A stretch of DNA of 64,000 bases from an uncultured delta proteobacterium (GTDB taxonomy: Bacteria > Desulfobacterota > Desulfobacteria > Desulfobacterales > SG8-13): the NCBI GenBank assembly GCA_963848135.1, contig CAWKCK010000003.1, positions 682,001-746,000 of the forward strand. Reading direction: 5' to 3'. Below the pieces are notes generated by a model that was not told the DNA's origin, searched no databases, and saw only the letters and a program-made list of their open reading frames with translations. How positions within the stretch are numbered: the stretch's first letter is position 1; every line of letters starts with the position of its first letter. Of this stretch, positions 1-21,597 are shown one piece after another. The translations under genes and the position numbers were made by a program.

Positions 1-950
1 CCAAACCGGATCAGGATGGCAATAAAAATAAGTGAGTGTAGGGACCAGCGTTGAATACTGTTTTTTAGAATCCGCCGTTGTAAAACAATGTCCAGGACAA
101 TTACCCTGATTGCCGTGAGGAATTTGCGTGAAAAGATCGTCTGCCAAACCGCATCGGAAGTCAGACTGATTTTCCGGTGCAGTGATTCGCCTTCGCCCTT
201 AACACTGCCGATAAACCAGAAGCGGACCATCAAAAACGTACCGCCGAGAAACGTGATCAATGCGATCCAGAATATGGGATGTCCGACGCCGAGAGATGAC
301 GGATGGCACATGATGCACAGCAGGCTTTTGGCCGGTAAGACGGCCGTTGGCGCACCGACCGTGTTTTGCGCTTGGTGACATCGCCGGCAGTTTTTTTCAT
401 CGCTGACATCATCGAGCGTATGATCGACCAGGCCGATCGGTTGTTGATCGGCATCCAAAAATGCCAACTTGACACGGTTGTCCCTGCTGTCGAGCATAAT
501 GGCTTTATGCTTGAAATGGCAGGCTTGGCAGTCAATTCTCAGGTGCGGGGCATGGGCGGTGCCTTCTCCGTGAAGCGAGTGACAGTCGCGGCATTGCCCT
601 CCTATCTCGGATCGGTGAGGCGATCGGGCCACGTCGGTATGACAATGGATGCAGGCCACGTATTGATGTGGATTGTCTTGAAACGTGCCGGCGATTACTT
701 GCAGCGGCACTTCCTTGCCGTCAACCACACGGCGGCAGTCGGGGTTGGCGTGGCATTCGTTGCAGAAGGCTCGGGAGGATTGCACGCCTTCATTGGTATT
801 TATATTGGGTTGCCGGTGGCAATCCAGGCAGATCGATTCCGCGTTTTTGGTGGCAAAATCCTGGCCGGCCATCAACGGATATACGCTAACAGCCAGAAGA
901 ATGGCGACACCGGCCGCGATCACCAGACCTATTCTACCCCTATTTCTCAT
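1..950 (-). CDS. Multiheme (7 CxxCH) cytochrome c fused to a membrane domain; partial, runs off the left edge and is absent from the ORF track
   Basis: Manual translation from ATG at 950 (RBS GGAGAGG): signal-like MRNRGRIGLVIAAGVAILLAV, then CLDCH, CNECH, CIHCH, CRDCH, CQACH, CRRCH, CIMCH, then hydrophobic segments (IFWIALITFLGGTFLMV; RWSLHSLIFIAILI). No stop before position 1. Confidence 0.9.
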   Translation of the reverse strand, partial: MRNRGRIGLVIAAGVAILLAVSVYPLMAGQDFATKNAESICLDCHRQPNINTNEGVQSSRAFCNECHANPDCRRVVDGKEVPLQVIAGTFQDNPHQYVACIHCHTDVARSPHRSEIGGQCRDCHSLHGEGTAHAPHLRIDCQACHFKHKAIMLDSRDNRVKLAFLDADQQPIGLVDHTLDDVSDEKNCRRCHQAQNTVGAPTAVLPAKSLLCIMCHPSSLGVGHPIFWIALITFLGGTFLMVRFWFIGSVKGEGESLHRKISLTSDAVWQTIFSRKFLTAIRVIVLDIVLQRRILKNSIQRWSLHSLIFIAILIRF

Positions 951-1039
951 CTGAGTTATGTTTCCTCTCCATCTAATGAGCCGCGTGTGATTTTTTCACC
1001 GGCAAACGATCGCGTGTCCGGACGAACCCATTCGAAAGC

Positions 1040-1756
1040 TCACTCCTCGGCAGAATCTCCGCCATCGTGAGCGGTCGCCCATTCGCCCGGATGTTCCGCG
1101 ATAATTTTTTCTTTTGTCGTTCTTCCGGTAAAAATGCTTGTGTCGGCCGGATATACGGCCGGTCTCAAATGGGCCAGTCCAATATGAAGAAAAAATTTAA
1201 CGGCAATCGCCAGAATAGCTTCGAAAAAATGCAGCACCTGGGCGATATTGATGAAATATCCCGGGATAAAACGGGTGAAGAACTCCGGAAACCACATCAC
1301 CAGGCCGGTAAGCCCCATGGTGTTCATACCGATAAAAAGGGCCCAGTAATCGATTTTTTCCATATAAGTGAATTTGTCGAATTTTGGAGGCGTTTCTCTG
1401 CGGCCCAAAAAATAACGTAAATTTTGAGAGAAGTCTTTGAAATCCTTAATAGAAGGGGCGATTGAAAGCGGGCCGGAGAGTTGACCTGAAAGGGCCGCTT
1501 TATAGTAGAGAAACCACAACGCATGCACGACCACACATAAATAAGTGGCAACAGCGAAAAAACGATGCAGCCATGCAGCACCGCCGGATCCGCCGACAAG
1601 CCAAATAAATGCTCGGGCGGGCGCCGTTGAGCTAAATCCCAACGACAGGCCCGTAACGGCCAGTCCGGTGAAGCCGATCATCACCACCAAATGCAGGAAC
1701 CGGTGAAGAACGGAGAATCGAATCGGGAGGTCTTGGGAGTACTTTTCTGCAGCCAT
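1040..1756 (-). CDS. Di-heme cytochrome b, FdnI/HydC-like (CbcL-type b domain)
   Basis: RFSVLHRFLHL, WLHR, KFTYMEKIDYWA, VLHFFEAILA and FLH motifs; four hydrophobic helices. Confidence 0.88.
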   Translation of the reverse strand: MAAEKYSQDLPIRFSVLHRFLHLVVMIGFTGLAVTGLSLGFSSTAPARAFIWLVGGSGGAAWLHRFFAVATYLCVVVHALWFLYYKAALSGQLSGPLSIAPSIKDFKDFSQNLRYFLGRRETPPKFDKFTYMEKIDYWALFIGMNTMGLTGLVMWFPEFFTRFIPGYFINIAQVLHFFEAILAIAVKFFLHIGLAHLRPAVYPADTSIFTGRTTKEKIIAEHPGEWATAHDGGDSAEE

Positions 1757-1757: not shown

Positions 1758-2657
1758 CTAATGTTTCCTCAGTTTTTCATGCAGTTCTCTCAAAAGCCAA
1801 AGAAGACTGTGTCCGAAAAAGAAAATCAGCGACAATGCCACCACCGCTATCACCGCAATCTTGATGCGATGGATCCAGAGGATCGATCGATGCTTGGGGG
1901 ATTCGGTGGCAGATAATTCGTCCATAGAGGCGTGGATAACGATATTGGTGAATTCGGTTTCAGCGGTCGGGTGGCATCGGCGGCAGACCGGCAACGCAGC
2001 TGTCGGCTCTTTGAGCGAGGTCATGGTGTGTGCCTGGTGGCAGTCTGTACAAAAGGCAGCGGCCGGATTTTCCAAGTTCACACCGACTCTTCCGTGAATA
2101 TTTTCGAGGTAACTGGCGGTTTGAACCCTGTGGCAACGGCCGCATGTAGGGATCATGCGTTTGCCGACAGTGACCCGGGACAGACCGGAGCGATCGTAGT
2201 GTGAAGAATGGCAGTCACCGCAGGTGGGTGCCGGTGTTTTGATTTTTTCCTTTTCACCGGCCGCATCCGATTCGGCAATTTCTTTGGACAAGGCCTTGGC
2301 ATGCTCGCCTTCCAGATACCGTTGGTATGACAGTTTGTGGCATTGCCGGCAGCGGCTGTAGTCGAAGACGCGTTTCGCCGCTTTCTTCAGGTTGTCCGGC
2401 TTTGTCTTATCCGGATGGGTCCGATTGTTTTCGATCATGGTCCCATGGCAGTCCTCACATTTAAAGCTGGCATGGGCCGAGAGTCCAAATCGGTTCAAGT
2501 CCACAAACCAATTTGCCTGGGACGTCGTGACGGTTTCGGCGCTTCCTTCAACGTTGCCTGCAAACCCAACCGCGACCAGCGTAATGGCCGCAACCGTCAA
2601 CCACGCGGCCATGTAGGTTTTAACCCAAGAACGGTTACGAAAAATTTCGCGTGCCAA
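1758..2657 (-). CDS. Hexaheme cytochrome c with N-terminal signal and C-terminal membrane anchor
   Basis: CEDCH, CRQCH, CGDCH, CGRCH, CTDCH, CRRCH; C-terminal helix IAVVALSLIFFFGHSLLW. Confidence 0.92.
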   Translation of the reverse strand: MAREIFRNRSWVKTYMAAWLTVAAITLVAVGFAGNVEGSAETVTTSQANWFVDLNRFGLSAHASFKCEDCHGTMIENNRTHPDKTKPDNLKKAAKRVFDYSRCRQCHKLSYQRYLEGEHAKALSKEIAESDAAGEKEKIKTPAPTCGDCHSSHYDRSGLSRVTVGKRMIPTCGRCHRVQTASYLENIHGRVGVNLENPAAAFCTDCHQAHTMTSLKEPTAALPVCRRCHPTAETEFTNIVIHASMDELSATESPKHRSILWIHRIKIAVIAVVALSLIFFFGHSLLWLLRELHEKLRKH

Positions 2658-2674
2658 TGTCGACTCCTCGAAAA

Positions 2675-3988
2675 TCAGTTGGGTTCCGATGCCGTCAAAA
2701 AGTACAGATGGAGAAACGCTGCCGTAAATTTTTGCAACAGGGCGAATAGCTGGCCAGCAACCGGTAGGGTATCGTGATCTTGGTCCAGGTTATTTTTCAT
2801 CAGCCGAAGCATGCTGGTGATTTCTGTGGCCCAAGCCCGAAGGTCAGTCGGCGTCCACTCGGTGGTACAGAGCCGACCCCGGGCCTCGAGGAACTTGAGG
2901 CGGTGCCACATTGAATCAAGAAATACTCTTATTTTTTCAGGTTCATAGTATTTTGTCCCGATCAGCCACCGAAGGGGTAACAATTCGAGACCGGCCGCCA
3001 CAATCCTTGAGTTGCTCAACTCCCGCTTCAAAGCCCTGATCAGATCTCGGCTGTCGGTTTCGGAAAGTTTTTCCGATTTCACCCGCTGCGCCGGGTCGCT
3101 GTGAGATGACCGGCCCGCATCCCAGAAGATGGCGTCCGCAATCAGCCCGTTGGCTTCAGGGTAATGGGGATGTTCGAGGTGTGGACCGAAGAGATAAATA
3201 TTCCCGCGACCAAGATTTGCACGAACGGCTGCCGCCTTTCCGATCAACGTCTCGTAAGCCAGGGCTTCATCCACCAGATATACGGTTTTATTGGTGAAGG
3301 CCTCGTAATGCGCCAGAACTTGTGCGCCATCGGAAGCGATCATGGCCGGTCCGCCGTACAAAGGTGCCGTCAACGCGCCGGGGCCAGAAAAAGGGGCCGT
3401 GCCGTTGACGCGTAACCCGATGGATTCTCGCACCGGGTGGAAAACAAAGCAACAACCATAGGCCGTTGAGAACTTATGGGGCATCTCATGGCAGTGTGGA
3501 AGATACTTGCTGAGGTTGGTGATCTTTACTGCCGCATAATTGAAGAGATTCAATGGCGATTTGGATGAGTTCATCGCCAGGTAGGCACCGGCACAACTCC
3601 CGATGTATAGACCACCGTTTTCAATAAAGCGCCTGATTTCACTGGCACCGTTTTTTCCCAGAGCGGTTGCAATAGTGAAGGTGTCCCCACCTGAGATGGC
3701 CAATACATCAAGGCCCTCTAACCCGCCTTCCTGAACGTTGTATTCATTCAGAAAGGAAAGATTGTTAAACCCCATGCGCTCGAACAGGTCGACGAACCAC
3801 AACCATGAGTGGGAGGTGCCTTCACCAGTGAAAATACCGACCTTGGAATATCGCAACTGGCGGCTGCCGGTTGTTTCCCGTTCGGATATACGACCTTGGC
3901 CGCTTTTACCGGTAAAAAATAATCGTTCCCCTCTGGCCAATCTTTCATTGGCAGCGGCGTATTGATCAAATACTGTTGCGAAGGCCAT
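2675..3988 (-). CDS. BPL_N-domain protein (class I glutamine amidotransferase-like) with a C-terminal helical extension
   Basis: ISGGD, YIGSCAGAY (Cys nucleophile), YGGP and GPHLEH (His-x-Glu). Confidence 0.8.
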   Translation of the reverse strand: MAFATVFDQYAAANERLARGERLFFTGKSGQGRISERETTGSRQLRYSKVGIFTGEGTSHSWLWFVDLFERMGFNNLSFLNEYNVQEGGLEGLDVLAISGGDTFTIATALGKNGASEIRRFIENGGLYIGSCAGAYLAMNSSKSPLNLFNYAAVKITNLSKYLPHCHEMPHKFSTAYGCCFVFHPVRESIGLRVNGTAPFSGPGALTAPLYGGPAMIASDGAQVLAHYEAFTNKTVYLVDEALAYETLIGKAAAVRANLGRGNIYLFGPHLEHPHYPEANGLIADAIFWDAGRSSHSDPAQRVKSEKLSETDSRDLIRALKRELSNSRIVAAGLELLPLRWLIGTKYYEPEKIRVFLDSMWHRLKFLEARGRLCTTEWTPTDLRAWATEITSMLRLMKNNLDQDHDTLPVAGQLFALLQKFTAAFLHLYFLTASEPN

Positions 3989-4141
3989 GTTCAATCTGGT
4001 TGTGCTATTTCATGGTACTATGAGGGTGAATCATCGGCGCGGTCAGCGATTAGGGGCGAACCGGCACCCAATTACGGGGAGCCTGCCGGTTATTCGGTGG
4101 CGCAGCGGTCACCGGTTGATATGTTCATCCCTGGCGGCCCG

Positions 4142-5458: not shown

Positions 5459-5489
5459 ACCGAATTCCTCCCAGATCAATTCGATGCGA

Positions 5490-5852: not shown

Positions 5853-6033
5853 TTTCTGTCCCTTCAATTTTTCCGGTTAGAGCATTATTGGCCTATTAGG
5901 TTGAACACATTGTAATCAATTGGTTTTCCTCTTAGAAGCGTGCCATGTCAGCCCGATTTGATGATGATCACAACAAGCGATTTCCCCGTTCGGCTTTAGA
6001 CTACGGGCTACCAAAAGTCAATATAAATATATT

Positions 6034-6072
6034 AAACATCTGAAGTTATAAAGTTTATAATTCTTCTTGACA
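6034..6072. promoter_or_regulatory. Putative FadR/GntR operator (AAACATCTGAAGTTA) with TTTATAAT and -35 TTGACA, in the divergent promoter region
   Basis: Near-palindrome; 29/39 ungapped identity to 15943-15981; a leftward TTGACT also lies at 6016-6021. Confidence 0.7.
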
Positions 6073-6155
6073 CGGTATGGGGATTGTGGCATCTGAGAGA
6101 AAAACACAAAATGTTACCAATCCTTATAGCCTAAATTATATTCAGAATATGAGAA

Positions 6156-6869
6156 ATGTTTAAAACAGCCCGCGTCAACAGAATATCCCAGAATATCGTT
6201 GATCAAATTCGAGATACCATCATTGCCGGCCGTTTGAAACCCGGCGACCGCCTGCCTTCGGAAAAAGAACTCTCTGCTGAATTCGGCGTCAGCAAGGCGT
6301 CATTGAGAGAAGCGCTGCGTGCTCTGGAGGCGCTCGGCATGCTTGAGGTCAAACAAGGCATGGGTGGCGGGGCCTTTGTCACAAAAGTCGACCTGGAAAC
6401 AGCCCGCAACAATATGTTCAACTATATTTTCTTTCAGAACCCATCTATCGGCGAATTCACCCAACTGCGCACACTTATCGAACCACAGGTTGCCGAAATA
6501 GCCGCCCGTAAATGCACCCAGGCTGATCTCGATTACCTGGAAGACAATTTGAATCAAACGCGAGATTTAATGGATTCCGGTCCGTTCTATTATAAACTGG
6601 ACACCAAATTTCATCACCGGATTGCCGAGATATCCGGCAACCGGTTGATCTGCTTCGTCATCGACTCGCTCAAAAATGCGATTGTCCAGATTAAACTGCA
6701 GCTCGAACTGGACCGGGATTTTTCCATCCAGGTATATAAGGCGCACATGCGCCTTTTTGATGCCCTGCGGAAACGTGATCCGGAACTGGCCCGGGCTGAA
6801 ATGCACCGGCACATCGTAGAGGTGGACGAGCAGATGAAACACTATTGCGACGGTGACACTTTGTTTTAA
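6156..6869 (+). CDS. GntR/FadR-family transcriptional regulator (wHTH + FCD)
   Basis: LKPGDRLPSEKELSAEFGVSKASLREAL; FCD motif DTKFHHRIAEISGN. Confidence 0.95.
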   Translation: MFKTARVNRISQNIVDQIRDTIIAGRLKPGDRLPSEKELSAEFGVSKASLREALRALEALGMLEVKQGMGGGAFVTKVDLETARNNMFNYIFFQNPSIGEFTQLRTLIEPQVAEIAARKCTQADLDYLEDNLNQTRDLMDSGPFYYKLDTKFHHRIAEISGNRLICFVIDSLKNAIVQIKLQLELDRDFSIQVYKAHMRLFDALRKRDPELARAEMHRHIVEVDEQMKHYCDGDTLF

Positions 6870-6905: not shown

Positions 6906-8351
6906 GTGACAGAAATGCCCGAGATACCACAAGAAACATTGAGGGTTGTCAAGGAATTGCAGGCCATCGTGGGGGAAAAAAACGCCACGGCAGCCAAGCA
7001 CATACGCTATGCATATTCCTATGACATGTCGTTCGTAAAGCCCAAATTGCCCGATTATGTGGTCATGGCCGAGACCGTGGAGCAGATCCAACAGCTCATG
7101 CGCTTTGCGAACCAGGAAAAGATACCGGTGATACCGTATACGGCCGGCACCAACATCGGCGGATTATGCATCCCCGAACGGGGCGGGATTCTGCTGGATT
7201 TAAAGCAGATGAACAAAATTATTAAGCTCGACGCAGAGTCCCACTATGCCGTTATCGAACCGGGTGTATCGCACGGACAACTGGCGGAGGCCCTCTATGA
7301 ACACAAGCTGCGTTTCGGTTGGCCGGTGGGACCGCCGTCGGCGTCGGTGTCATCATGTGCCATTTCCCATGGTATCGGCGGCCTGAATGCTCGCTACGGA
7401 CTCAACAGCCAGGAAATCACCAGCATGGAAGTGGTTCTTCCGACCGGCGAACTGGTGCGGGTCGGCTCCTGTGCCATCGTAGAGGATGCCTGGCACAGCA
7501 CACTGCCGATGCCCAAGCTCGACGGTCTGTTCAAGGGCTGGTTGGGCTCCACCGGCGTTGTGACCAAACTGGGCATTACCGTGCACCCGATTCCGCCGGT
7601 TTTGAAAGTATTTACAGTCTCTTGTGAGAATGTCGAGGACATGTACTCCTACATGCTCAATCTAAGCAATTACGAGATCTGTGACGATCTGACGGCAGTA
7701 TCCTGGTGGTTGGCCCAGGTGCCGATTCCCTATCCCTACCGGACGAAACCAGACGATCAGCCCGAGTGGTTCAGTTTCGCAAATACCAATTCGTTCACTG
7801 AAAAGGAAAAAGAAGCCCGGGAAGAAATCTGGCAGATGGTGGTCGATGAGGAAACGAAAAAGGGAACATCCTTGAAGGTGACCCAATATCCGGAAGAAGC
7901 CTTGCGTGCGCGGACGCAGCTTCCGAGCCAGATTGTTGGATCCACCAAGAATTACTGCAAAATGGCCGGTGCCGGGATCTCCTGGCCGGGGACTTTTACA
8001 CCCGCCAATAAATGGGCCCCGGTCTACAACGCGTGGAAAGAGATCCTGATCGGTCACAACCTGTCGCCCTCGATCCGGATGAGCATGTACCGGGGGGTGC
8101 ACTATGGCATGCTGCGGGCGATGATTCCGTTCAACAAACAGAATCCAGAAGAAACCGAAAATGCCCGTCAGGCGATCGTAGAGTGCTTGAAGGTGGATTT
8201 GGAACATGGAGGGATTCCCTACAAACCGCCGGTGGATTTCGGTCGGGAGATAAATAAAATTGCCCATCCCGGGTATCTGGCCCTATTGAAGCGGGTTAAA
8301 AAGATGCTCGATCCCAACGATATTATGAATCCGGGCAAACTGGCCATTTGA
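6906..8351 (+). CDS. FAD-binding oxidoreductase (VAO/PCMH/GlcD fold), non-canonical active site
   Basis: AGTNIGG, GILLDLKQMN, VIEPGV, MEVVLPTGE, GSTGVVTK and DPNDIMNPGK; lacks HAGDGNLH and EHG. Confidence 0.88.
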   Translation: MTEMPEIPQETLRVVKELQAIVGEKNATAAKHIRYAYSYDMSFVKPKLPDYVVMAETVEQIQQLMRFANQEKIPVIPYTAGTNIGGLCIPERGGILLDLKQMNKIIKLDAESHYAVIEPGVSHGQLAEALYEHKLRFGWPVGPPSASVSSCAISHGIGGLNARYGLNSQEITSMEVVLPTGELVRVGSCAIVEDAWHSTLPMPKLDGLFKGWLGSTGVVTKLGITVHPIPPVLKVFTVSCENVEDMYSYMLNLSNYEICDDLTAVSWWLAQVPIPYPYRTKPDDQPEWFSFANTNSFTEKEKEAREEIWQMVVDEETKKGTSLKVTQYPEEALRARTQLPSQIVGSTKNYCKMAGAGISWPGTFTPANKWAPVYNAWKEILIGHNLSPSIRMSMYRGVHYGMLRAMIPFNKQNPEETENARQAIVECLKVDLEHGGIPYKPPVDFGREINKIAHPGYLALLKRVKKMLDPNDIMNPGKLAI

Positions 8352-8454
8352 GTTGGGATAACAAATGCCGGAAATGCTGTATACGCTGATCTTGTATGGC
8401 TCCGGTTTTAACGAAAAGTCCGGAAAAAATCCGTGGAAACGATTGGAGGAATAT

Positions 8455-11104: not shown

Positions 11105-11242
11105 TCTCTCATTTTAGCGATTTTTTACTATCGCGGTGTCAGCGTTTTGCGATGGGAACGGACCAATTCATCCGCTTCAAGTTGAATTTTCGGTTGCCAC
11201 CGCGCGCTTGACCCGTTTGCGGTGTAGGAATATCGGCCAACA

Positions 11243-11289
11243 ATCACCGGGGTGCGGGTTCGCCTGATGATGACCCGTAACCCGGTGAT
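11243..11289 (+). other. Intergenic stem-loop between the SBP and permease genes (mRNA-stabilising or attenuating)
   Basis: ATCACCGGG...CCCGGTGAT with an inner CGGGT/ACCCG pair. Confidence 0.55.
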
Positions 11290-11330
11290 ATCTATCCTTT
11301 CAAATTTTTTTAAGGACGCGGCAATCCGAA

Positions 11331-13204: not shown

Positions 13205-13213
13205 CACAGCGCT

Positions 13214-13960
13214 ATGGAAGCCTTTTTATGCACGGAAGACCTGTGTCGCCAATTCGGTGGCGTGACGGCCACGGACTGTGTGTGCATCAATTTCGAGGAG
13301 AACGGGCTGCGCTCCATCATCGGTCCGAATGGCGCCGGGAAAACAACCTTTATCAACATCGTTACCGGCCGTATACCTGCCAGTTCAGGCAAGGTCATTT
13401 TTCAGGGTAAAGACATTACCAACAAACCCACCCACGAATTGGTAAAAATGGGCATCTGCCGGACATTTCAGATTACCAGTGTATTTCATAACCTGAGCGT
13501 GTTCGAAAATGTCAGGATTGCGACCCAAGCCCGCCGGGGCGGATCATTAAAAGTGTTCTCACTCAAGAAAAATCTGCGCCAGGTAACCGAGCAGACCTGG
13601 ACCATCCTGGAACGGCTCGGACTGCAGGACCTGGCCAGTGAGCCGGCCAAGAATCTGGCTTATGGCGATCAGAGAGTTTTGGAGGTGGCCATTGCCATGG
13701 CTGGTACGCCGAATATTTTGTTTTTGGACGAACCGACCGCCGGTATGTCTCCAGCCGAGACACATCGTATATCTGGATTGATCAAGGGATTGTCAGGGGA
13801 AATTTCCATCGTTCTGGTTGAGCACGATATGGACCTCGTGATGAGCATATCCGATGCCATCACAGTTCTGCATTACGGCAGCATCATTGCCGAAGGCCGG
13901 CCCGAAGAGATACGAAACAACGCGATGGTGAGGGAGGCCTATCTTGGAAAAGAAGGATAG
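13214..13960 (+). CDS. livG: Branched-chain amino acid-type ABC ATPase
   Basis: GPNGAGKTT, RTFQ, LDEPTAG, VEHD and VREAYLG. Confidence 0.93.
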   Translation: MEAFLCTEDLCRQFGGVTATDCVCINFEENGLRSIIGPNGAGKTTFINIVTGRIPASSGKVIFQGKDITNKPTHELVKMGICRTFQITSVFHNLSVFENVRIATQARRGGSLKVFSLKKNLRQVTEQTWTILERLGLQDLASEPAKNLAYGDQRVLEVAIAMAGTPNILFLDEPTAGMSPAETHRISGLIKGLSGEISIVLVEHDMDLVMSISDAITVLHYGSIIAEGRPEEIRNNAMVREAYLGKEG

Positions 13961-14666
13961 AATTCTGAATATCGAGGAAATACAGACTTATTATGATGAA
14001 AGCCACGTTATTCAGGGCCTTTCGCTGCATGTGGAAAATAGTGAAGCCGTTTCCATTTTGGGGCGCAACGGCGTCGGAAAGACAACGACCTTGAGATCGG
14101 TGATGGGACTGACGCCTCCTCGATCCGGAAAAATTACTATCGCTGATAAGGATACCACCAAATTACCACCCCACGCGATATCCAAACTGGGGGTGGCCTA
14201 TGTCCCGGCCGAAAGACATATTTTCCCAGGAATAAATGTAGAAGAGAATCTCAAGTTGGCCGCTCGCCCTGGCAATGGCAGCAATTCTTGGACCATAGAA
14301 AGAATATACGACCAGTTTCCTGTTCTCGCCGACCGAACCAAACAAGATGGCTCGACCCTCAGCGGCGGCGAACAACAAATGTTGGCCATCGGCCGGGCAC
14401 TGATCAGCAACCCCAAAATCATCATCATGGATGAACCTTCCCAGGGGTTGTCCCCCCTTCTGGTGGATATTGTCACCGAGTGTATTCAAAACTTTTGCGT
14501 CAATTCAGGCATTACGCTGCTGGTGGTGGAACAAAACTACCGCATGGCTCTGAAGGTGGCCAGCCGCCATTATTTGATGGGAACGAAAGGAAAGATCGCC
14601 GGCATTTCATCCACGCAAGAATTAATTGATGAGCCTGAAATTATTCAGAAACATCTGTCTGTTTAG
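13944..14666 (+). CDS. livF: Branched-chain amino acid-type ABC ATPase
   Basis: GRNGVGKTT, LSGGEQQMLAIGRAL, MDEPSQGL and VEQN. Confidence 0.93.
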   Translation: MEKKDRILNIEEIQTYYDESHVIQGLSLHVENSEAVSILGRNGVGKTTTLRSVMGLTPPRSGKITIADKDTTKLPPHAISKLGVAYVPAERHIFPGINVEENLKLAARPGNGSNSWTIERIYDQFPVLADRTKQDGSTLSGGEQQMLAIGRALISNPKIIIMDEPSQGLSPLLVDIVTECIQNFCVNSGITLLVVEQNYRMALKVASRHYLMGTKGKIAGISSTQELIDEPEIIQKHLSV

Positions 14667-14753
14667 TTACCGTTGAGCAATAAGATATAATTCGTCTTGC
14701 CGTTTCCAGTAGAGAGGAGATGGTGAACAGTCTGTTATGAGTTGGAGGAAAAA

Positions 14754-15770
14754 ATGACACTTAAAGAAAGATTTATGAAACGGCTAGAGGGCAAAGAGGT
14801 GGATGTGACCCCCGTCGGTTGTACAACCACATACGGTGTCGTGGATATCATGAAAAAAGTAGGGGCCGAAAGGCCTTTCGCCGACACCGATCCCAAAGCC
14901 ATGGCAACTTTGGCCCTGGGATATGTCGAGGCCGGTTTCGAGTGGTGCAAGGCGATGGGTTGGGATATCACGCCGGTGAGCGAAGTGATGGGGTGTACGA
15001 TCGGTGAACCCAAAATCGACCTGCAGAAATTTATCAAGGCGCATCCTTTTTCCGAAAGCCTGGACGGTCTTGGGTACCCCGACAATTTGTTTGAGAAAGG
15101 GCGGTTTCCAGCTTACAAAGAGCAGTTCAAGATTCTGAAAGACAGACTCGGTGACGCGGTGGCTGTTTTCGGAGAATCGGAGGGCGCCTGGACATGTGCC
15201 TGCAACCTCGTGGGTACGGAACAGTTCCTGAAATGGACGTTCAAAGAGCCGGGCAAGGTTCAACAGGTGTTGGATGTCGCAACAGCGGTTGTGGTCGATG
15301 TCATCAACTGGGCTTTCGATCAAGGCGCGGACTACTATGTTCTGGCCGAACCTTCCTCCGGCCCGGCGCTTATGAGTCCCAAGACCTGGGAAAAATATGT
15401 CCTGCCGATGATGAAATCGGTCTGCCAGAAGACCAAAGGGCCGATCGTATTGCATATCTGTGCGAATACCGACAAGATCATTTCTCTTATGTGCGATACC
15501 GGAGTGGCCGGAATCAGCATTGAGGAAAAGGCCGACTTGAAAAAGGCGGTCAACGTTGCCCACGAAAAGGGTGTACGGGTTTTCGGGAATGTCGCCACGG
15601 CAACAACCCTCTTCATGGGTACACCAGAAGCCTCATATGCTGAGGCGATCGCCTGCATAGAAAGCGGCACCGACTTTCTCACTCCCGGATGCGGGATCGC
15701 GCCGCTGTCGCCACTTGTCAACGTGCTGCAACTGCGGAAGGCACGTGACGATTTTTTCAAGATCGGATAG
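14754..15770 (+). CDS. MtaA/CmuA-family methylcobamide methyltransferase (UroD fold)
   Basis: MTLKERF N-terminus, Zn motif LHICAN, GISIEE, GNV and PGCGI. Confidence 0.82.
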   Translation: MTLKERFMKRLEGKEVDVTPVGCTTTYGVVDIMKKVGAERPFADTDPKAMATLALGYVEAGFEWCKAMGWDITPVSEVMGCTIGEPKIDLQKFIKAHPFSESLDGLGYPDNLFEKGRFPAYKEQFKILKDRLGDAVAVFGESEGAWTCACNLVGTEQFLKWTFKEPGKVQQVLDVATAVVVDVINWAFDQGADYYVLAEPSSGPALMSPKTWEKYVLPMMKSVCQKTKGPIVLHICANTDKIISLMCDTGVAGISIEEKADLKKAVNVAHEKGVRVFGNVATATTLFMGTPEASYAEAIACIESGTDFLTPGCGIAPLSPLVNVLQLRKARDDFFKIG

Positions 15771-15935: not shown

Positions 15936-15981
15936 ATATTATAAATATCAGATGTTTTGATATTTATAATATTTGTTGACA
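15936..15981. promoter_or_regulatory. Perfect 15-bp inverted repeat with putative GntR operator and -35 TTGACA, upstream of the ureohydrolase-mmsA-rSAM operon
   Basis: ATATTATAAATATCA-7nt-TGATATTTATAATAT; contains AAATATCAGATGTTT; TTGACA at 15976-15981. Confidence 0.72.
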
Positions 15982-16104: not shown

Positions 16105-17175
16105 GTGATACGGTCCCCAGAACAAAGCGTCTTCCTGTTCGGTTGTCCCCTGGACTGCGACGAGAAACATGACGCCATCCAGGAAAAGCTCTCCGAACCG
16201 GTCGCCCATGCCCGTTCCGATGACCCGCTGGTTGCGGTTGCAGAGGCCCTTTCAATGCGGGTGCCGCAAAGCGAATGGGAATATGGTGGATCTCTTGAAG
16301 TGCCCGGCTGGCTTCGGCCCATTCCGGACAAAGATGAGCGATCCGGCGTCCTTGTCGAGGCGTACGTTCATTTCATTGATCAAAACGGATGCCGTGATTT
16401 TGCAGATGGTGTTGCCGAGACTGTTCGTTCGCAAATTCTGCCGCGTTTTCCATGTATGGTCACTGTCGATCATTCTTTAACCGGGGGCGTCTACCGGGCC
16501 TTGGCAGAACATTACGGCAAAGACAGACTGTCTTTGCTCGTCATCGACAGTCATACCGATGCGGTTCCCATGTCGAAGCTGGCCGGGGCGATTTCATATG
16601 ACATGGATACCAATCCAAACTCACCGTTCGATCCGACCGACCCGTATCTGAATAACCGACCTGAAAGCTACAATGCCAGTTCCTTTCTCCACTTCATTCT
16701 GGCAGAGGGTTATATAGACCCCTGTGACCTCTATATCTTAGGTGTTAGCGATTTCCCCGACAAAAAGGCTTTTCGGCTAAAGGATTCGAGGATTGCTGAA
16801 TACCTTGCGGTATACACTGAGCTGAGGAAAGGCGGTGCAACGCTCATCACCAAGGATGAGTGCCGATTGAAGCCGACTAAAATTAAAAATCTTCTAAACA
16901 AAATCCGCACGCCCTATGCATATGTGTCTGTTGATATGGATATTGGTGCCCGAAATGCACTCGACGGTGTTCGCTTTCGCAACTGGCAGGGCCTTTCTGA
17001 AAATCAAATTTACCGTTTAGCGGATACAATAGCCCAGACTGGCGGACAAGATCTGAAAATCGTTGGTATGGATATTACCGAAATCAACCCCAGAGCGGCC
17101 GGGAAGCCGCGGGGAGAATCGGTTGATCGCACGTATCAAATAGCGGCGAATTTGATCGAACGCTTCGTTTTTTGA
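16105..17175 (+). CDS. Arginase/agmatinase (ureohydrolase) family protein, divergent
   Basis: VDHS, IDSHTD, SVDMD and DITEINP binuclear-metal motifs; GTG start uncertain. Confidence 0.82.
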   Translation: MIRSPEQSVFLFGCPLDCDEKHDAIQEKLSEPVAHARSDDPLVAVAEALSMRVPQSEWEYGGSLEVPGWLRPIPDKDERSGVLVEAYVHFIDQNGCRDFADGVAETVRSQILPRFPCMVTVDHSLTGGVYRALAEHYGKDRLSLLVIDSHTDAVPMSKLAGAISYDMDTNPNSPFDPTDPYLNNRPESYNASSFLHFILAEGYIDPCDLYILGVSDFPDKKAFRLKDSRIAEYLAVYTELRKGGATLITKDECRLKPTKIKNLLNKIRTPYAYVSVDMDIGARNALDGVRFRNWQGLSENQIYRLADTIAQTGGQDLKIVGMDITEINPRAAGKPRGESVDRTYQIAANLIERFVF

Positions 17176-17283
17176 ATAATTTTTGAAACAAACGGTCAGG
17201 TTGGAGCTGCAAGATCGTGACCCATAAAAGTTAAATGATCACAATATTGGCTGGTCGCAAAAAATGAGAAAGGAGTCAGAAGA

Positions 17284-18879
17284 ATGCTTGAAAAGAAAAA
17301 GGAACGATACTTTGTCGACAGCGGGGCGACAGAGGCCGGTGATGCACCGAAAAAACTCAAATATTGCATCGGGGGGCAATGGCTGGAGTCCAAGACAGAC
17401 AATTACATGAACTGCTATAATCCGTCCACGGGTGAAGTCATTGCTCTGGCGCCCCAGTGCACAGCGGATGAGGTGGAGATGGCCGTCACGGCGGCCAAAG
17501 AGGCCTATCCTTTGTGGGCTGATACGCCGGTGGCCAAACGCGTGCAGGTGCTGTACAGAATGAAACACCTGCTGGACACGCACCTGGAAGAACTCACCTA
17601 CCTTCTGGCGATGGAAAATGGTAAAAAGTGGGCCGAAGCCATGGGGGATGTGCTCAAGGTGACAGAGGTCGTGGAGTTTGCCTGCGGTGCACCGCATCTG
17701 ATGAAAGGCGAGTCGTTGATGAATGTCAGCACCGGCTACGACACGGTACAGTACCATCATCCTGTAGGGGTTTTTGCCGGTATTGCCCCCTGGAATTTTC
17801 CGGCGATGATCCCGCATGGTTGGATGACCCCCATCTGTATCGCCACGGGAAACTGCATGATCCTCAAAGCCGCCAGTTTCGTTCCCCAGTCTTCCATGCG
17901 AATGATGGAACTGTGGCAGGAGGCCGGGATTCCCGACGGGGTGATCAACGTCATCACCACCGGTCGTAACGAAGCGGAACTCCTGCTCAGCCACCCGGAT
18001 ATTGCGGGAATTTCCTTTGTCGGCTCCACGAAAGTGGGATTGCACATATACAAGACCGCTGCCGCCAGCGGCAAGCGTGTTCAAGCCCTGTGTGAGGCAA
18101 AAAACCATGCTTTGGTCCTTAGAGATTGCAAGCTTGAACGGACCGCCCAAGGCATTATCAATGCTTTCTGTGGTTGCGCGGGCGAGCGTTGCATGGCCCT
18201 TCCGGCCATCGCCGTGGAAGAATGCATTGCCGATGAACTGGTGGGTCTGTTGAAAAAATACGCGTCGGAAATGAAGCTGGGTCCGGCTTACGAAAAAACG
18301 ACCGATATGGGGCCGGTAGTCAACGAAGGGCACATGAAATTCGTATCGAATTGGATCCAGACCGGGATCGAGGAAGGGGCCGTACCTGTGGTAGACGGCC
18401 GCAACCCCCAGGTGCCGGCTGGTTGCGAAAAGGGATTTTTCATTGGACCGACGATTCTCGATCATATTACCGAAGACATGTCCGTCGGGCGGGAAGAGAT
18501 ATTCGGGCCAGTATTGTGTGTTAAACGGGTGAAAAATTTCGAAGAGGGAATCACCCTGATGAATAACAGCCGTTTTGCCAATGGATCGGTGATATATACG
18601 CAAAACGGTTATTATGCGCGTGAATTCGCCAAACGGACGGATGCCGGCATGGTCGGTATCAATGTGGGTATACCGGTCCCGCTGGGAATATTCGGCTTCA
18701 CCGGGCATAAACAATCCTTCTTCGGTGATCTGCATGTGATGGGCAAAGACGGATTTGCCTTCTTTACCGAAACCAAAAATGTCACCAACACATGGTTTTC
18801 GGAAGACGAAGATTATAAGGCTTGCAAGGTCGATACCTGGGATGGAACCATTACCTCTCTGCCGGTTGACGACAAATAA
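17284..18879 (+). CDS. mmsA: CoA-acylating (methyl)malonate-semialdehyde dehydrogenase
   Basis: PWNFPAMIP, SFVGST, KRVQAL.EAKNH, GERCMA and GMVGINVGIPVP. Confidence 0.9.
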   Translation: MLEKKKERYFVDSGATEAGDAPKKLKYCIGGQWLESKTDNYMNCYNPSTGEVIALAPQCTADEVEMAVTAAKEAYPLWADTPVAKRVQVLYRMKHLLDTHLEELTYLLAMENGKKWAEAMGDVLKVTEVVEFACGAPHLMKGESLMNVSTGYDTVQYHHPVGVFAGIAPWNFPAMIPHGWMTPICIATGNCMILKAASFVPQSSMRMMELWQEAGIPDGVINVITTGRNEAELLLSHPDIAGISFVGSTKVGLHIYKTAAASGKRVQALCEAKNHALVLRDCKLERTAQGIINAFCGCAGERCMALPAIAVEECIADELVGLLKKYASEMKLGPAYEKTTDMGPVVNEGHMKFVSNWIQTGIEEGAVPVVDGRNPQVPAGCEKGFFIGPTILDHITEDMSVGREEIFGPVLCVKRVKNFEEGITLMNNSRFANGSVIYTQNGYYAREFAKRTDAGMVGINVGIPVPLGIFGFTGHKQSFFGDLHVMGKDGFAFFTETKNVTNTWFSEDEDYKACKVDTWDGTITSLPVDDK

Positions 18880-18931
18880 AGCCGGAATTATTTAGCGCCA
18901 ATTGCGTGACAAACCAATGAAAGAATGCTAA

Positions 18932-18965
18932 CAGGCTCCAATTCCATAAAGAGGATTGGGGCCTG
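18932..18965 (+). terminator. Stem-loop between mmsA and the radical SAM gene (leaky terminator or stabiliser)
   Basis: CAGGCTCCAAT...ATTGGGGCCTG followed by CTTTG. Confidence 0.45.
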
Positions 18966-18990
18966 CTTTGCTGTGGCCGAAACATTTCGC

Positions 18991-20598
18991 ATGAAGGAAA
19001 TAATTACAGAAATTCAAAGCTGGGGCATTCGCGTGCCGCCGGATATTACGGGGCGCAATGGCGGGGCCGGCCCGGCGGAGGGCCGGGCGATGTTAATTGA
19101 CGGAATCGCCGTAAACGCCCCCATAAGCACGGTGTATACCAAACGGTCGCCATTCCGTCTGACGAAAGATCCTGATGGCCGTTATACGTTGTACCGGTAT
19201 GACCAGCGTGTGACCGCCGTTTCAGTGGTACCGCCACCGCACTTCTATGACTACACCGGATCCGACGGCGTTTCCTTGCAGAAGATCGCCCTGCTGCATG
19301 GCGCCGACTGTCTGGCGACCACGGTACGCCAGCGGTGTGTCAACTGGAAAAAGTCTCTGCGCTGTGCTTTCTGTGCCATAGAGCAATCGCTTGAAAATAA
19401 CCTCACGATAGCTGAAAAATCTCCCCACCAGTTGGTCGAAGTGGCCCGCAAAGCAAAATCCGAAGACAATGTCACGCACATGGTGCTCACCTCGGGAACC
19501 GCAGATCCGCCAGGGGCTGAGATAGACTATCTGGCTCGATGTGCAACCGCAATCAAAGCATCAGTAGACATGCCCCTGCACGTTCAATTTTTACCCCCGG
19601 CTGATCTTGGATTGATGGAGCAATTGAAAACCGCCGGGGTCGATACCGTGGGCATTCATATCGAAAGTTTCGATCAGGGGATCCTGCGGAAACTGGCACC
19701 GGCGAAGGCGCGAATCGGGCTTGACAGATATGAGGCCGCCTGGAAAAAAGCTGTGGCTGTGTTTGGACCCAACCAGGTGAGCAGTTTTTTGATCGTCGGC
19801 CTTGGCGAACAGCCTGAGTCGATTGTTTGGGGCAGTGAATATTTGGCGGACCTGGGTGTGTACCCCTTTGTCGTCCCCTTACGGCCCATCCCCGGATCTT
19901 TTCTGCAGGAGACCCTAACGCCGGATCCGGTCTTGATGGCCCGCATTTACACAGATGTGGCCGATATCCTGCGCAAAAAAGGTCTGACAGCGAAGAAGAG
20001 CCTCGCCGGCTGCGTCCGATGCGGTGCTTGCACAGCATTGCCCCTTTATGAAAAGCCGTGTCATCAGATTACCTATCACAGCGCCCGCACGGATAATGAA
20101 CTTTCCCAGGCTTTTGGTATTCGTCAGAAAGTATTCATCCAAGAGCAGGCCCTATTCGTTGATTCGGATATTGATGAAAACGATGCGGCCAGCATCCACA
20201 TTGTGGCCAACAAAGGGGGACGAATCGTCGGTACTGTCCGGGTTTTTCCGGATCCTCATCAGCGGGGAGGCCACTGGATCGGTGGTCGACTGGCGGTGCT
20301 CAAAGACTTCCGAGATTATCGCGTCGGCGCCGCCCTGGTGAAGGAGGCCATGAAGCGGGTCAAGAAAAAAGGCTGTGCCGTATTTACAGCCCACATTCAG
20401 GAAAAAAATATCAGATTTTTTAAAAAGCTTGGCTGGGTCGCCGCAGGACCAGTCGAAACTTACTGCGGTCGTCCTCACCAGCGTATGCAAGCCGATTTGA
20501 GCCGTATCGTAGGCAGGGAGATGCATAGCCTGCCTGAAACAAGGCTGCCGAAATTGGATCCTGCTGTGACCTCTGAGCTTGAGAGAAATTACACATGA
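18991..20598 (+). CDS. MSMEG_0568/NitD-family radical SAM protein fused to a C-terminal GNAT (MSMEG_0567/NitE-like) domain
   Basis: GGAGP, KIALLHG..CLATTV.Q.C-x8-CAFC, HMVLTSGT, GIHIESFD, VYPFVVP.RP and AGCVRCGAC; then F.IRQKVF..EQ, VGTVR, GGRLAV and F.KLGW. Start could be 18925 or 18991. Confidence 0.88.
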   Translation: MKEIITEIQSWGIRVPPDITGRNGGAGPAEGRAMLIDGIAVNAPISTVYTKRSPFRLTKDPDGRYTLYRYDQRVTAVSVVPPPHFYDYTGSDGVSLQKIALLHGADCLATTVRQRCVNWKKSLRCAFCAIEQSLENNLTIAEKSPHQLVEVARKAKSEDNVTHMVLTSGTADPPGAEIDYLARCATAIKASVDMPLHVQFLPPADLGLMEQLKTAGVDTVGIHIESFDQGILRKLAPAKARIGLDRYEAAWKKAVAVFGPNQVSSFLIVGLGEQPESIVWGSEYLADLGVYPFVVPLRPIPGSFLQETLTPDPVLMARIYTDVADILRKKGLTAKKSLAGCVRCGACTALPLYEKPCHQITYHSARTDNELSQAFGIRQKVFIQEQALFVDSDIDENDAASIHIVANKGGRIVGTVRVFPDPHQRGGHWIGGRLAVLKDFRDYRVGAALVKEAMKRVKKKGCAVFTAHIQEKNIRFFKKLGWVAAGPVETYCGRPHQRMQADLSRIVGREMHSLPETRLPKLDPAVTSELERNYT

Positions 20599-20613
20599 AC
20601 AGAGGAGGCCGAT

Positions 20614-21597
20614 TTGAGTGACCGGCTGGAGTCTTTAGTGGATTTGATTCGGAACTCTGAAGGTGTGCGGCGCAAACGGCCGATCAAGGAAGTCGTTGAA
20701 CGGTTGAACCGAACGCATGCATTCGGTTCGATGGTTCCAAATTATGGCGATGATGCCGCTGCCATTCCCTGGCAGGATGGGTACCTGCTGGTCGCGGCTG
20801 ACGGCATGATGACCGACCTTCTGGTCAACGAACCTTACGCTGCCGGCAAAGCCTCGGTCATGGTTACCGTCAACGACATCTACTCCATGGGCGGCAGGCC
20901 CATCGGACTGGTCAATGTCCTGGCTAGTGGCGACGGTACCCAGCGCCGCAAAATAGTCGAGGGGATCGAAAAAGGATGCCGCAAGTTGCAAGTCCCCATG
21001 TTGGGCGGCCACTTGCATCCTGATGCACCGCTAAATTATCCGGCATTGAGTGTGACCATCATCGGATTCGCCAAAGCTCTCCTCCGCAGCCACCTGGCGG
21101 CTCCCGGAGACCAGCTGGTCCTTGCGGTCGATTTGGACGGCAAGGCCGGCTGCCAGTCGGTTGTCAGCTGGGATGCCAATTCCGGTAAGAGTTCCGAAGC
21201 CATCCGCCGGCGGTTAGAGGCACTTCCCCTTATTGCCGAAAGCGGTTTGGCATCGGCAGCCAAGGATGTCAGCAACGCCGGGATCATCGGCACCACCGCC
21301 ATCATGCTCGAAAACTCAGGGAAGGGAGCTGATATTGACATCGATGCGATTCCTGTGCCCAATTCTTTAGGGCTCGAGCCGTGGTTGTTGTGTTTTCAAA
21401 GTTTCGGGTTCATCCTATCGGTCCCTCCTGAGGCCACCGACCGGGTACTGTCCCTATTCTCTGAGCGCCAAATTACCGCTGCAGTCATTGGTATCGTGCA
21501 GGCAGATCCTGTCGTAAAGATATGCAGCGGAAACGATTCCAACGTTCTCTTCGATTTCAGCCGGGATATCATTACAGGAATTCGGCCCCCACTTTAA
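20614..21597 (+). CDS. PurM/AIR-synthase-like ATP-dependent protein (sll0787/NitF, methanogenesis-marker-2-like)
   Basis: GDDAAAI, LVAADG, VNDIYSMGGRP, GGH and AKDVSNAGIIGT. Confidence 0.88.
   Translation: MSDRLESLVDLIRNSEGVRRKRPIKEVVERLNRTHAFGSMVPNYGDDAAAIPWQDGYLLVAADGMMTDLLVNEPYAAGKASVMVTVNDIYSMGGRPIGLVNVLASGDGTQRRKIVEGIEKGCRKLQVPMLGGHLHPDAPLNYPALSVTIIGFAKALLRSHLAAPGDQLVLAVDLDGKAGCQSVVSWDANSGKSSEAIRRRLEALPLIAESGLASAAKDVSNAGIIGTTAIMLENSGKGADIDIDAIPVPNSLGLEPWLLCFQSFGFILSVPPEATDRVLSLFSERQITAAVIGIVQADPVVKICSGNDSNVLFDFSRDIITGIRPPL

Follow-up and report, generated by a model that had tools for sequence, protein, structure and literature searches.

A conserved gene system of Desulfobacterota in which a nitrilase-free Nit1C core is joined to a membrane module of the DsrMK/Tmc type and a probable catabolic operon for a flavoprotein and a CCG protein

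Gene clusters of the Nit1C (or gpr) type are known from Pseudomonas (nitBCDEFGH), Synechocystis (sll0783–sll0787) and Mycobacterium smegmatis (MSMEG_0565–MSMEG_0572). In the accessible part of PMC11049912, NitD, NitE and NitF are described by family only. The available text of PMC6039565 connects the cluster of mycobacteria with nitrogen starvation, with resistance to peroxide and with NADPH, gives it a DsrE-like member, and likens MSMEG_0567 to selenophosphate synthetase; in Synechocystis, Nit1C is connected with polyhydroxybutyrate (PHB) accumulation in the portion of PMC3901256 available to us. The gene system described here lies at nt 1–21597 of a 64,000-nt stretch of DNA (the window) from an uncultured delta proteobacterium of the Desulfobacterales (assembly GCA_963848135.1, contig CAWKCK010000003.1, nt 682,001–746,000; genome 6.03 Mb, 98.65% complete). 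An earlier note had read it as a three-operon GntR regulon with a Nit1C-like module, and as a candidate catabolic system matching no described pathway. When the window proteins were searched with Pfam and NCBIfam profiles, and scores compared with the curated cut-offs, all of the genes listed in that note were recovered. No description of the system was found in the literature on Nit1C, on AIR synthase/radical SAM clusters, on methanogenesis marker protein 2 or on Desulfatitalea alkaliphila, and the part of the 2026 WOR classification paper (PMC13328260) that was accessible has nothing on truncated AORs with radical SAM neighbours, so that the claim of an undescribed gene set stands.

The gene system is real and robustly conserved, and combines variants of three known kinds: the core of Nit1C without its nitrilase, a membrane module resembling DsrMK and Tmc, and a catabolic operon of the flavoprotein/CCG kind. 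When genomes are compared, its members fall into two blocks. Block M comprises a ferredoxin, a shrunken AOR-family protein (mini-AOR), a class-I glutamine-amidotransferase (GATase)-like protein, a variable quinone/cytochrome module, NarI and CCG proteins, an SsuA-type importer, a fused radical SAM-GNAT protein and a PurM-like protein. Block C comprises a GntR regulator, MmsA, a VAO/PCMH-like flavoprotein, a CCG protein, an importer, an MtaA orthologue and an arginase-like hydrolase. The 'Nit1C-like' label applies to only part of this set, since two to three of roughly seven Nit1C families are represented. Shared with Nit1C are the MSMEG_0568-family radical SAM protein (TIGR04043, 385.1 bits in a whole-genome search) and the MSMEG_0567/Sll0786-type GNAT, and directly after their gene follows an sll0787-like AIRS protein, which falls slightly below the sll0787 cut-off and scores equally against methanogenesis marker 2. 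Three other Nit1C families fall short of their cut-offs in the whole genome: the top match to the Nit6803-type nitrilase model TIGR04048 scores 212.3 against 502.6 and lies on another contig, the MSMEG_0569 flavin oxidoreductase model (TIGR04046) reaches at best 23 against 498, and the MSMEG_0570-family model (TIGR04042) has no match. Unlike in Nit1C, the radical SAM and GNAT parts are fused in the window, and the trio is accompanied, in strict anaerobes, by the mini-AOR, ferredoxin, GATase-like and NarI/CCG proteins and an SsuA-type importer.

Other parts of the system recall different described complexes. Like the DsrMK, TmcBC and HmcEF complexes of sulfate reducers, the locus combines a NarI-like membrane domain with a cytoplasmic 4Fe-4S/CCG protein encoded next to it, and has multiheme cytochromes c attached. 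Only this domain architecture is shared, as the 627-amino-acid (aa) CCG protein of the locus scores 102 vs 735 against TmcB, 75.8 vs 400 against DsrK and 61.6 vs 750 against HmcF, whereas the heme-c domain is here fused to NarI and the cytochrome part can be exchanged for an NrfD/molybdopterin module. With AORs and the BamBC subunits of class II benzoyl-CoA reductase, the mini-AOR shares the AFOR_N domain and the overall fold, as well as a ferredoxin gene directly upstream and CCG proteins nearby, but it has only 438 aa, lacks an AFOR_C match and conserved cluster cysteines, and carries instead a largely invariant HRHS motif. The methyltransferase belongs to the URO-D-fold MtaA family, as do MtaA (PDB 4ay7) and the MtsA and MtpA members of the MtsA/MtsB and MtpCAP methylthiol methyltransferase systems of Methanosarcina, and its orthologues occur near corrinoid protein and RACo genes; unlike those systems it is bacterial, without a coenzyme M context, and has its putative corrinoid protein in trans. 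Finally, GlcDF, LdhAB and YdiJ also pair a FAD_binding_4/FAD-oxidase_C flavoprotein with a following two-CCG-domain protein under a GntR-FCD regulator. GlcD (110.8 vs 567.9) and D-lactate dehydrogenase match the window flavoprotein in the FAD domain only, and its closest full-length solved relative is the flavoprotein of p-cresol methylhydroxylase (PCMH; E 1.2e-33, 119.7 bits).

Conservation was assessed in 34 loci seeded with the arginase-like protein, over which the window proteins were run by tblastn. Thirty-two of the locus titles name Desulfobacterota-type taxa, and one isolate, Desulfatitalea alkaliphila M08but (L013), is included. The genes travel together across genomes, which counts in favour of the earlier note: an MtaA orthologue is found in 26 loci, the radical SAM-GNAT protein in 21, the PurM-like protein in 18, the flavoprotein with its CCG partner in 17, and MmsA at 70% identity or more in 13. 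Ferredoxin and mini-AOR occur in nine, with many loci ending before that position. The flavoprotein is the best-conserved protein of the cluster (74–97% identity across loci). In all five genomes checked, the second CCG protein (627 aa), the heme-c/NarI fusion, the cytochrome b and the hexaheme cytochrome adjoin the cluster, and in four of them the SsuA-type ABC importer comes next. In an even order-level sample of 151 genomes, including that of the window, the mini-AOR occurs in nine, the radical SAM-GNAT protein in nine, the arginase-like protein in eight and all three in five; of the nine mini-AOR genomes, eight have the radical SAM gene and the other has its cluster cut by a contig end. 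The distribution is patchy, since genomes of the same genus and of the same family in this sample are without all three. Across a phylum-level sample, a near-full-length mini-AOR (ORF below 550 aa) was found in about 35 of 301 genomes; the remaining matches are canonical AORs of roughly 600–700 aa that match in the N-terminal domain only.

At more distant mini-AOR loci, a ferredoxin gene precedes the mini-AOR gene in ten of ten cases and a GATase-like gene is next in seven. Four genomes (G394, G199, G139 and G331) carry ferredoxin, mini-AOR, GATase-like, radical SAM, GNAT and PurM-like genes on one strand. The NarI and CCG module is also present in the first three, and the SsuA-type ABC importer in G394; the cassette of G331 contains an SDR gene instead. 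In G394 and G199 the cytochromes c and b are replaced by a trio of NrfD, 4Fe-4S and molybdopterin-oxidoreductase genes, from which it appears that the link of the cassette to a quinone or periplasmic pool is kept while its parts are exchanged; the earlier proposal that electrons pass to the quinone pool is thus plausible. A further arrangement is seen in G213, G292 and G320, which represent other families of the phylum. Their block M is divergent to a set of genes for GntR, MmsA, the flavoprotein, the CCG protein and Liv components. The MtaA orthologue lies downstream in all three and the arginase-like gene in G213 and G320. Here the radical SAM-GNAT gene follows the SsuA-type ABC genes, and a PurM-like gene comes after it in two of the three. 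Compared with this order, the lineage of the window appears to have moved the radical SAM-GNAT and purM-like genes behind the arginase-like and mmsA genes, placing them under a second copy of the operator. Such a relocation, as read from gene order, would be the strongest sign that the two blocks are used jointly. From these comparisons, blocks M and C and their shared operator can be regarded as parts of one conserved arrangement.

In the operator/promoter block, a 17-bp palindrome (AAAACATCAGATGTTTT type) precedes TTTATAAT and TTGACA. The block was found by reading the intergenic regions, and had not been reported by a repeat finder run on nt 1–22000. The string TTTATAATnnTTnTTGACA occurs exactly twice in the 64 kb, at nt 6054–6072 and 15963–15981, and two matches were seen in none of 100 shuffles. 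Block 1 sits in the divergent region and is oriented towards gntR. A MAFFT alignment of five intergenic regions showed likeness only between those upstream of gntR and of the arginase-like gene, and none for those preceding the binding-protein gene, livH and the ferredoxin gene. Among orthologous regions, 11 of the 12 that precede gntR contain the whole block. Of the 18 that precede the arginase-like gene, nine contain it, and one more has it with altered spacing; where it is missing, the arginase-like gene probably shares a transcript with the MtaA gene, as these regions are mostly short.

A genome-wide scan with a position weight matrix placed the three best matches of the genome within the locus: nt 15941 (score 31.3, the best), 6032 (27.9) and 20404 (26.9), the best elsewhere being 23.2. 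The third operator-like site (nt 20404–20424) lies inside the GNAT part of the radical SAM-GNAT frame, about 190 nt upstream of purM-like, and is without the TTTATAAT and TTGACA parts. A sigma-70 scan called TAAACA-17-TATAAT for block 1 and made no call for block 2, and TTTATAAT and TTGACA are candidates for the –10 and –35 elements, respectively. The promoter block claimed in the earlier note as common to three operons is real and conserved, but it exists in two copies, and no separate copy was found for the minus-strand operon, which may share the divergent region with gntR. What remains of the proposed three-operon regulon are two plus-strand transcription units that share a conserved operator/promoter essentially unique to the locus in this genome. 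The block comparison is good comparative evidence for a putative local regulon, in which the GntR protein presumably binds the palindrome. Coordinates of the features are given in Table 1.

Table 1. Features of the gene system at nt 1–21597 and of its continuation to the left of the window (bit scores are followed by the curated cut-off where 'vs' is given)
Feature	Position (nt)	Strand	Evidence
CCG protein, 627 aa, 4Fe-4S and CCG domains	left of window, after NarI fusion (L002)	-	top match TfrB 209 vs 385
Heptaheme cytochrome c fused to NarI-like membrane domain	1..950, 3' part left of window (L002:17493-18950)	-	485 aa; 7 CxxCH
Cytochrome b, FdnI/Ni_hydr_CYTB type	1040..1756	-	PF01292 58.3 bits; TIGR01583 53.9 bits, below cut-off
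Hexaheme cytochrome c, C-terminal hydrophobic stretch	1758..2657	-	6 CxxCH; Cytochrome_C7 and C554 matches
Class-I GATase-like protein (Pfam BPL_N), extra helical C-terminal domain	2675..3994	-	PF09825 45.7 bits
Mini-AOR, shrunken AOR-family protein, 438 aa	4142..5458 (ORF extends to 5644)	-	AFOR_N (PF02730) 151.3 bits
Small ferredoxin-like protein, 120 aa	5490..5852	-	Fer4 family matches
Operator/promoter block 1	6032..6072	+	imperfect palindrome 6032-6052, TTTATAAT 6054-6061, TTGACA 6067-6072
GntR regulator with FCD domain	6156..6869	+	PF00392, PF07729
FAD_binding_4 flavoprotein, VAO/PCMH-GlcD superfamily	6906..8351	+	Pfam
Fe-S protein, two CCG domains (TfrB/HdrD/GlcF-like)	8365..9768	+	PF02754, two stretches; two CCG motifs; TfrB 160.7 bits, below cut-off
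Liv/Urt-type ABC importer	9917..14666	+	binding protein (Peripla_BP_6) 9917-11104, permeases 11331-13204, ATPases 13214-14666
MtaA/CmuA-family methyltransferase, URO-D fold	14742..15770	+	TIGR01463 241.1 vs 235.4; PRK06252 287.7 vs 244
Operator/promoter block 2	15941..15981	+	palindrome 15941-15961, TTTATAAT 15963-15970, TTGACA 15976-15981
Divergent arginase-family metallohydrolase	16105..17175	+	PF00491 71.5 bits vs 22
MmsA, CoA-acylating (methyl)malonate-semialdehyde dehydrogenase	17284..18879	+	TIGR01722 530.9 vs 448.5
MSMEG_0568-family radical SAM fused to MSMEG_0567/Sll0786-type GNAT	18925..20598	+	TIGR04043 383.4 vs 303.7; TIGR04045 118.7 vs 68.45
PurM-superfamily (AIRS) protein, sll0787-like and methanogenesis-marker-2-like	20614..21597	+	TIGR04049 306 vs 321.3; TIGR03267 306.9 vs 365

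The earlier note had named the sequence to the left of the window as a place to look, and there the minus-strand operon does continue, first with the rest of the heptaheme-NarI fusion, next with the CCG protein of 627 aa and then with an ABC importer of the SsuA family. By gene recurrence, the system is bounded by the SsuA-type ATPase gene at the left and purM-like at the right, since genes further out recur only in close relatives. This applies to the SDR, thiolase-like and polyhydroxyalkanoate genes beyond the left limit. Just past that limit (L002:744-11841) lie genes for PhaR-like, PhaC, PhaE, MaoC dehydratase, thiolase-like and SDR proteins, a set kept only in the closest relative (L051). 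The right flank (nt 21697–27240 of the window) encodes an SSADH-like ALDH, a fused, FadX-like CoA-transferase and an activator of the PAS/sigma-54 type (top match PrdR, below cut-off). These three recur in just two to four of the 17 compared sources (16 loci and the window), and were excluded as members of the system on this ground. Elsewhere in the window, an ORF of 709 aa with a B12-binding domain is found at nt 43457–45586.

Within block M, heme counts are those of CxxCH motifs in the translated sequences, and the Pfam domain Nitrate_red_gam covers residues 351–474 of the heptaheme fusion protein. All equivalog models fall below cut-off for the 627-aa CCG protein. The SsuA-type binding protein to the left of the window (L002:14385-15356) scores above the TIGR01728 cut-off (186.3 vs 163.5) and below that of the taurine equivalog (101 vs 304). 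It has a pair of adjacent cysteines in all 11 tblastn hits (two of which represent the same region), set in H-P/A-C-C-V in ten rows and in GPCCA in L033. Homologue searches with the BPL_N/peptidase-S51-like (GATase-like) protein, as with the arginase-like protein, gave only generic names. A structure model of the GATase-like protein (pLDDT 87.7) superposes in Foldseek on the GATase subunits GuaA-A, Pdx2, HisH and TrpG (TMt 0.63–0.74) over its N-terminal ~250 residues, while the ~140 helical residues at the C-terminus have no structural match. Residues C134, H272 and E274 are invariant in 30 aligned sequences. The confident model thus indicates a class-I amidotransferase fold, and by the alignment the Cys-His-Glu triad of this predicted enzyme is intact.

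The mini-AOR is about 170 residues shorter than AORs (438 aa against about 600–650), and Pfam detects no AFOR_C match (pterin-binding domains 2 and 3) at E <= 0.01. Its structure model (pLDDT 74.6) nonetheless superposes on whole AORs and on BamB (1aor, 9g7j, 4z3w; TMq 0.73–0.79), which indicates, at the level of the model, that a reduced version of the AOR fold is retained despite the missing match. In AORs, four cysteine ligands hold a [4Fe-4S] cluster. No invariant or near-invariant cysteine column exists among 11 aligned mini-AOR sequences, and no CxxC motif; the HRHS motif, on the other hand, has H253, R254 and S256 invariant and H255 nearly so. It is probable that the mini-AOR binds neither tungsten nor pterin.

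The radical SAM part of the fusion has a variant cluster motif, CX8CX2C, and GNAT forms its C-terminal domain. Fusion is not universal, as the match is broken by one in-frame TGA in G038, G042 and G150 and by a TAA in G139, in which the two parts are separate neighbouring ORFs (L054:8085-9611). The closest solved relatives of the PurM-like protein are small PurL proteins.

In block C, the GntR-FCD protein scores highest against the NCBIfam models for NanR, PdhR, LldR and GlcC, without reaching any of their cut-offs. Of the 34 loci, 11 have the Liv-type importer, and in eight others a single ORF of 459–509 aa stands in its place. Six copies of this ORF were scanned with Pfam: five match no family at E <= 0.001, and one matches MFS_MOT1 weakly, below cut-off. 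Features from a language model likened the one copy examined to NCS2/BenE-type permeases, which is a lead only. Open reading frames beside distant arginase-like genes (L029, L030) were considered as the same alternative permease and ruled out as unrelated. The arginase family has a binuclear metal site with the motif layout DHS, DxHxD, DxD, and for the divergent member encoded here an alignment of 19 sequences shows no variation in the ligands H123, D148, H150, D152, D277 and D279, nor in E326, C14, C96 and C117. Its scores are far below the cut-offs of the arginase, agmatinase and HutG equivalogs. Paralogues or distant orthologues adjoin either cobalamin genes or a PPIase/YidB/HHH set, and the cobamide-gene neighbours may hint at a cobamide-related role for this family. 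In L029, L030 (about nt 2000–11065) and L067:4721-6655, distant arginase-like genes and MtaA orthologues are found beside genes for CobQ, CbiB, CbiZ, a CobD-type aminotransferase and CbiX. A group II intron reverse transcriptase/maturase gene (L025:11347-12669) lies directly downstream of the arginase-like gene in L025.

The methyltransferase scores below the MtaA equivalog cut-off (306 vs 400), with a match to PDB 4ay7 at E 8e-67. No paralogue in its genome exceeds 31% identity to it, which marks it as a distinct orthologue. A 61% identical orthologue in L024 is followed by genes for a B12-binding protein and a RACo activase. In G292, genes for MtrH-like, URO-D, corrinoid, RACo and DUF6951 proteins precede a 59% identical orthologue, directly after the Liv genes, and in G320 a corrinoid protein gene precedes one of 64% identity. 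An island that could serve in trans is present on contig C17 of the genome of the window, in the order URO-D, MtrH-like, URO-D, corrinoid protein, RACo, DUF2284, URO-D. The RACo gene of this island (L075:7294-9223) appears as two overlapping ORFs split within the middle domain, one with Fer2, the linker and half of that domain, the other with its remainder and the C-terminal domain; a frameshift or a fault in the assembly may account for the split. From the gene context of its orthologues, the cluster methyltransferase is probably corrinoid-dependent, and methyl transfer via a corrinoid is likely. Among URO-D-type methyltransferases, precedents exist for S-methyl and for aryl-O-methyl donors, aryl-O-demethylases having components of this type, and MtsA and MtpA are themselves members of the MtaA family; the methyltransferase families known for N-methyl donors are others. 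Enzymes of the MtaA type act on methylated thiols such as dimethyl sulfide and methylmercaptopropionate (PMC7374477, as far as its accessible text goes). The earlier suggestion of a methylated, nitrogen-containing solute has therefore gained support in its first half, from the corrinoid, RACo and MtrH-like genes beside orthologues and the set in trans here, while nothing specific to N-methyl compounds was found.

We tentatively interpret these data as one conserved two-block system of Desulfobacterales-type anaerobes under one local regulator, with block C as its catabolic and block M as its redox part, a reading to which we would give a little less than even chances. Its observed basis is the identity of the genes, the conservation and juxtaposition of the blocks, the shared operator/promoter and the corrinoid context of MtaA; the direction of electron flow, the substrate class and every catalytic step are what we infer from it. 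The importer of block C would take up a small methylated carboxylate, the methyl group of which would more likely be S- or O- than N-linked. The MtaA orthologue would move this group onto a corrinoid protein encoded elsewhere in the genome, the flavoprotein and CCG protein would oxidise the carbon skeleton to (methyl)malonate semialdehyde, and MmsA would turn the latter into an acyl-CoA. Block M, which holds the nitrilase-free core of Nit1C, may act as a membrane-anchored redox module that connects cytoplasmic Fe-S/CCG chemistry to the quinone pool or a periplasmic cytochrome pool. A more specific guess, which we consider quite unlikely as it stands, is demethylation of a 3-methylthio-type propionate, with the thiol- or hydroxyl-bearing carbon oxidised to malonate semialdehyde. 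It is put forward because it would tie together MtaA and the corrinoid, the thiol-oriented CCG partner, MmsA and the sediment habitat, and it accounts for neither the arginase-like enzyme nor block M.

Several observations count against the joint interpretation. The arginase-like enzyme has no role in the proposed route, no corrinoid protein was detected by Pfam scans in the cluster of the window, and the mini-AOR shows no sign of the features (AFOR_C, cysteine ligands) that go with the cofactors making AORs catalytic. As to the oxidation to (methyl)malonate semialdehyde postulated in the earlier note, MmsA is absent from five loci with arginase-like and radical SAM genes (L005, L006, L019, L022, L032), and an ALDH of 39–42% identity takes its place in three loci. 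The matrix used in the operator scan of the 6.03-Mb genome was built from 19 instances that included both window sites. In a search for expression of nt 14742–21597, all of the 21 matching sequencing runs were of DNA or unknown type and none of RNA; none contained half of the sampled words, and most were labelled as sediment or salt-marsh metagenomes. Block M occurs without block C in G394, G199, G139, G331 and G076, and MtaA and arginase-like genes occur without block M, beside cobalamin genes or enolase, in L024, L025, L029 and L030. Given these separate occurrences, the blocks may have separable functions.

The strongest competing explanation builds on this last point. It takes the two blocks as independent neighbouring units, C being a self-contained catabolic operon, M a general membrane redox or sulfonate-handling module, and the shared promoter in the lineage of the window a by-product of the shift of the radical SAM-GNAT and purM-like genes to behind mmsA. 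The changing company of block M would fit such a view: it is found beside acyl-CoA dehydrogenase, OYE-type reductase and amine oxidase genes in G139, beside SDR and HcyBio genes in G076, and beside thiolase-like and SDR genes in G331, and, as noted, MtaA and arginase-like genes can do without it. Independence is more difficult to reconcile with the retention of the divergent M/C arrangement in the group of the window, in G001–G005 and in G213, G292 and G320, where the arginase-like proteins are only 38–66% identical. Nor would it be expected that two M genes stand under a second copy of the same operator in the lineage of the window, or that FAD_binding_4 and CCG pairs also accompany distant mini-AOR cassettes (L057, L058, L061, L063). 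We regard independent units as rather unlikely, though worth serious attention.

The cofactor idea of the earlier note offers another explanation for part of block M. The radical SAM, GNAT, PurM-like and GATase-like proteins would in that case make or repair a dedicated cofactor or a carrier thiol, or serve in maturation of the complex around the mini-AOR, without acting on the growth substrate. The radical SAM, GNAT and AIRS-like trio is the conserved, unsolved core of Nit1C/gpr in aerobes, according to the accessible parts of PMC11049912 and PMC6039565. Further, the radical SAM protein has weak matches to the sulfur-inserting LipS2 and BioB families, the cassette of G076 has an HcyBio (PF01837) sulfur-incorporation protein and no detectable PurM-like gene, and the cofactor-less mini-AOR and CCG proteins always accompany the cassette. 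The presence of its own SsuA-family importer fits substrate uptake better than maturation, however, and the product and target are postulated ones, the activities of the GNAT and PurM-like proteins being predicted ones. A purely biosynthetic role is therefore improbable in our estimation.

Breakdown of methoxylated or alkyl-phenolic aromatic acids is a weaker candidate. It would combine an MtaA-like aryl-O-demethylase, a PCMH/VAO-type hydroxylase and a BamBCD-like set of mini-AOR, ferredoxin and CCG proteins, in agreement with the nearest full-length solved relative of the flavoprotein, with the match of the mini-AOR model to BamB (4z3w, TMq 0.73) and, as a lead only, with the BenE/NCS2 resemblance of the alternative permease by language-model features. 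Some PDB relatives of the Liv-type binding protein are, we presume, aromatic-acid binders. At 119.7 bits the PCMH match is weak, though, and the mini-AOR is without conserved cysteine ligands and an AFOR_C match; MmsA and the arginase-like enzyme fit no known aromatic route, and ring-cleavage or CoA-ligase genes are not conserved in the cluster, all of which makes this proposal very unlikely. Equally doubtful is a guanidino or ureido substrate (3-guanidinopropionate, or a sulfonated guanidine) from which the arginase-like enzyme would release urea, the rest passing via malonate semialdehyde to acetyl-CoA: the binuclear-metal site is intact, MmsA adjoins the arginase-like gene, the second importer is of the SsuA sulfonate family, and the permeases and ATPases of the Liv/Urt-type importer have their highest scores with urea-transporter families (below cut-offs), but the cluster has neither a conserved aminotransferase nor a conserved urease, the arginase-like family also stands beside cobalamin genes and enolase elsewhere, and the MtaA/corrinoid link is left unexplained.

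A last conjecture, which we would rate as a long shot and the least probable of those presented, is that the system is a bacterial counterpart of methanogen thiol chemistry in sulfate-reducing Desulfobacterota, uniting import, thiol synthesis, methyl transfer and disulfide redox. Block M would import a sulfonate-type precursor, from which the radical SAM (BioB/LipS2-like), PurM/SelD-like (HcyBio in one variant), GATase-like and mini-AOR proteins might make, or recycle, a small thiol. This thiol would be methylated or demethylated by the MtaA orthologue through the corrinoid protein, and oxidation or reduction of its disulfide would fall to the TfrB/HdrD-like CCG proteins, with their wiring to NarI and the cytochromes. 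If true, this would assign a function to the long-unsolved core of Nit1C.

Returning to the two-block system that we tentatively prefer, its significance would depend on the blocks acting together. In that event the genes would represent an undescribed route by which abundant sulfate reducers of sediments use a small organic compound, and the compound consumed may be one of the methylated sulfur compounds, or of the compounds derived from osmolytes, that are common there. For Nit1C, the locus provides a handle, in that the radical SAM, GNAT and AIRS-like trio of cyanobacteria, mycobacteria and cyanide-using pseudomonads is here placed in a defined redox and transport context. The mini-AOR adds to the tungsten-enzyme family a widespread and apparently cofactor-poor branch.

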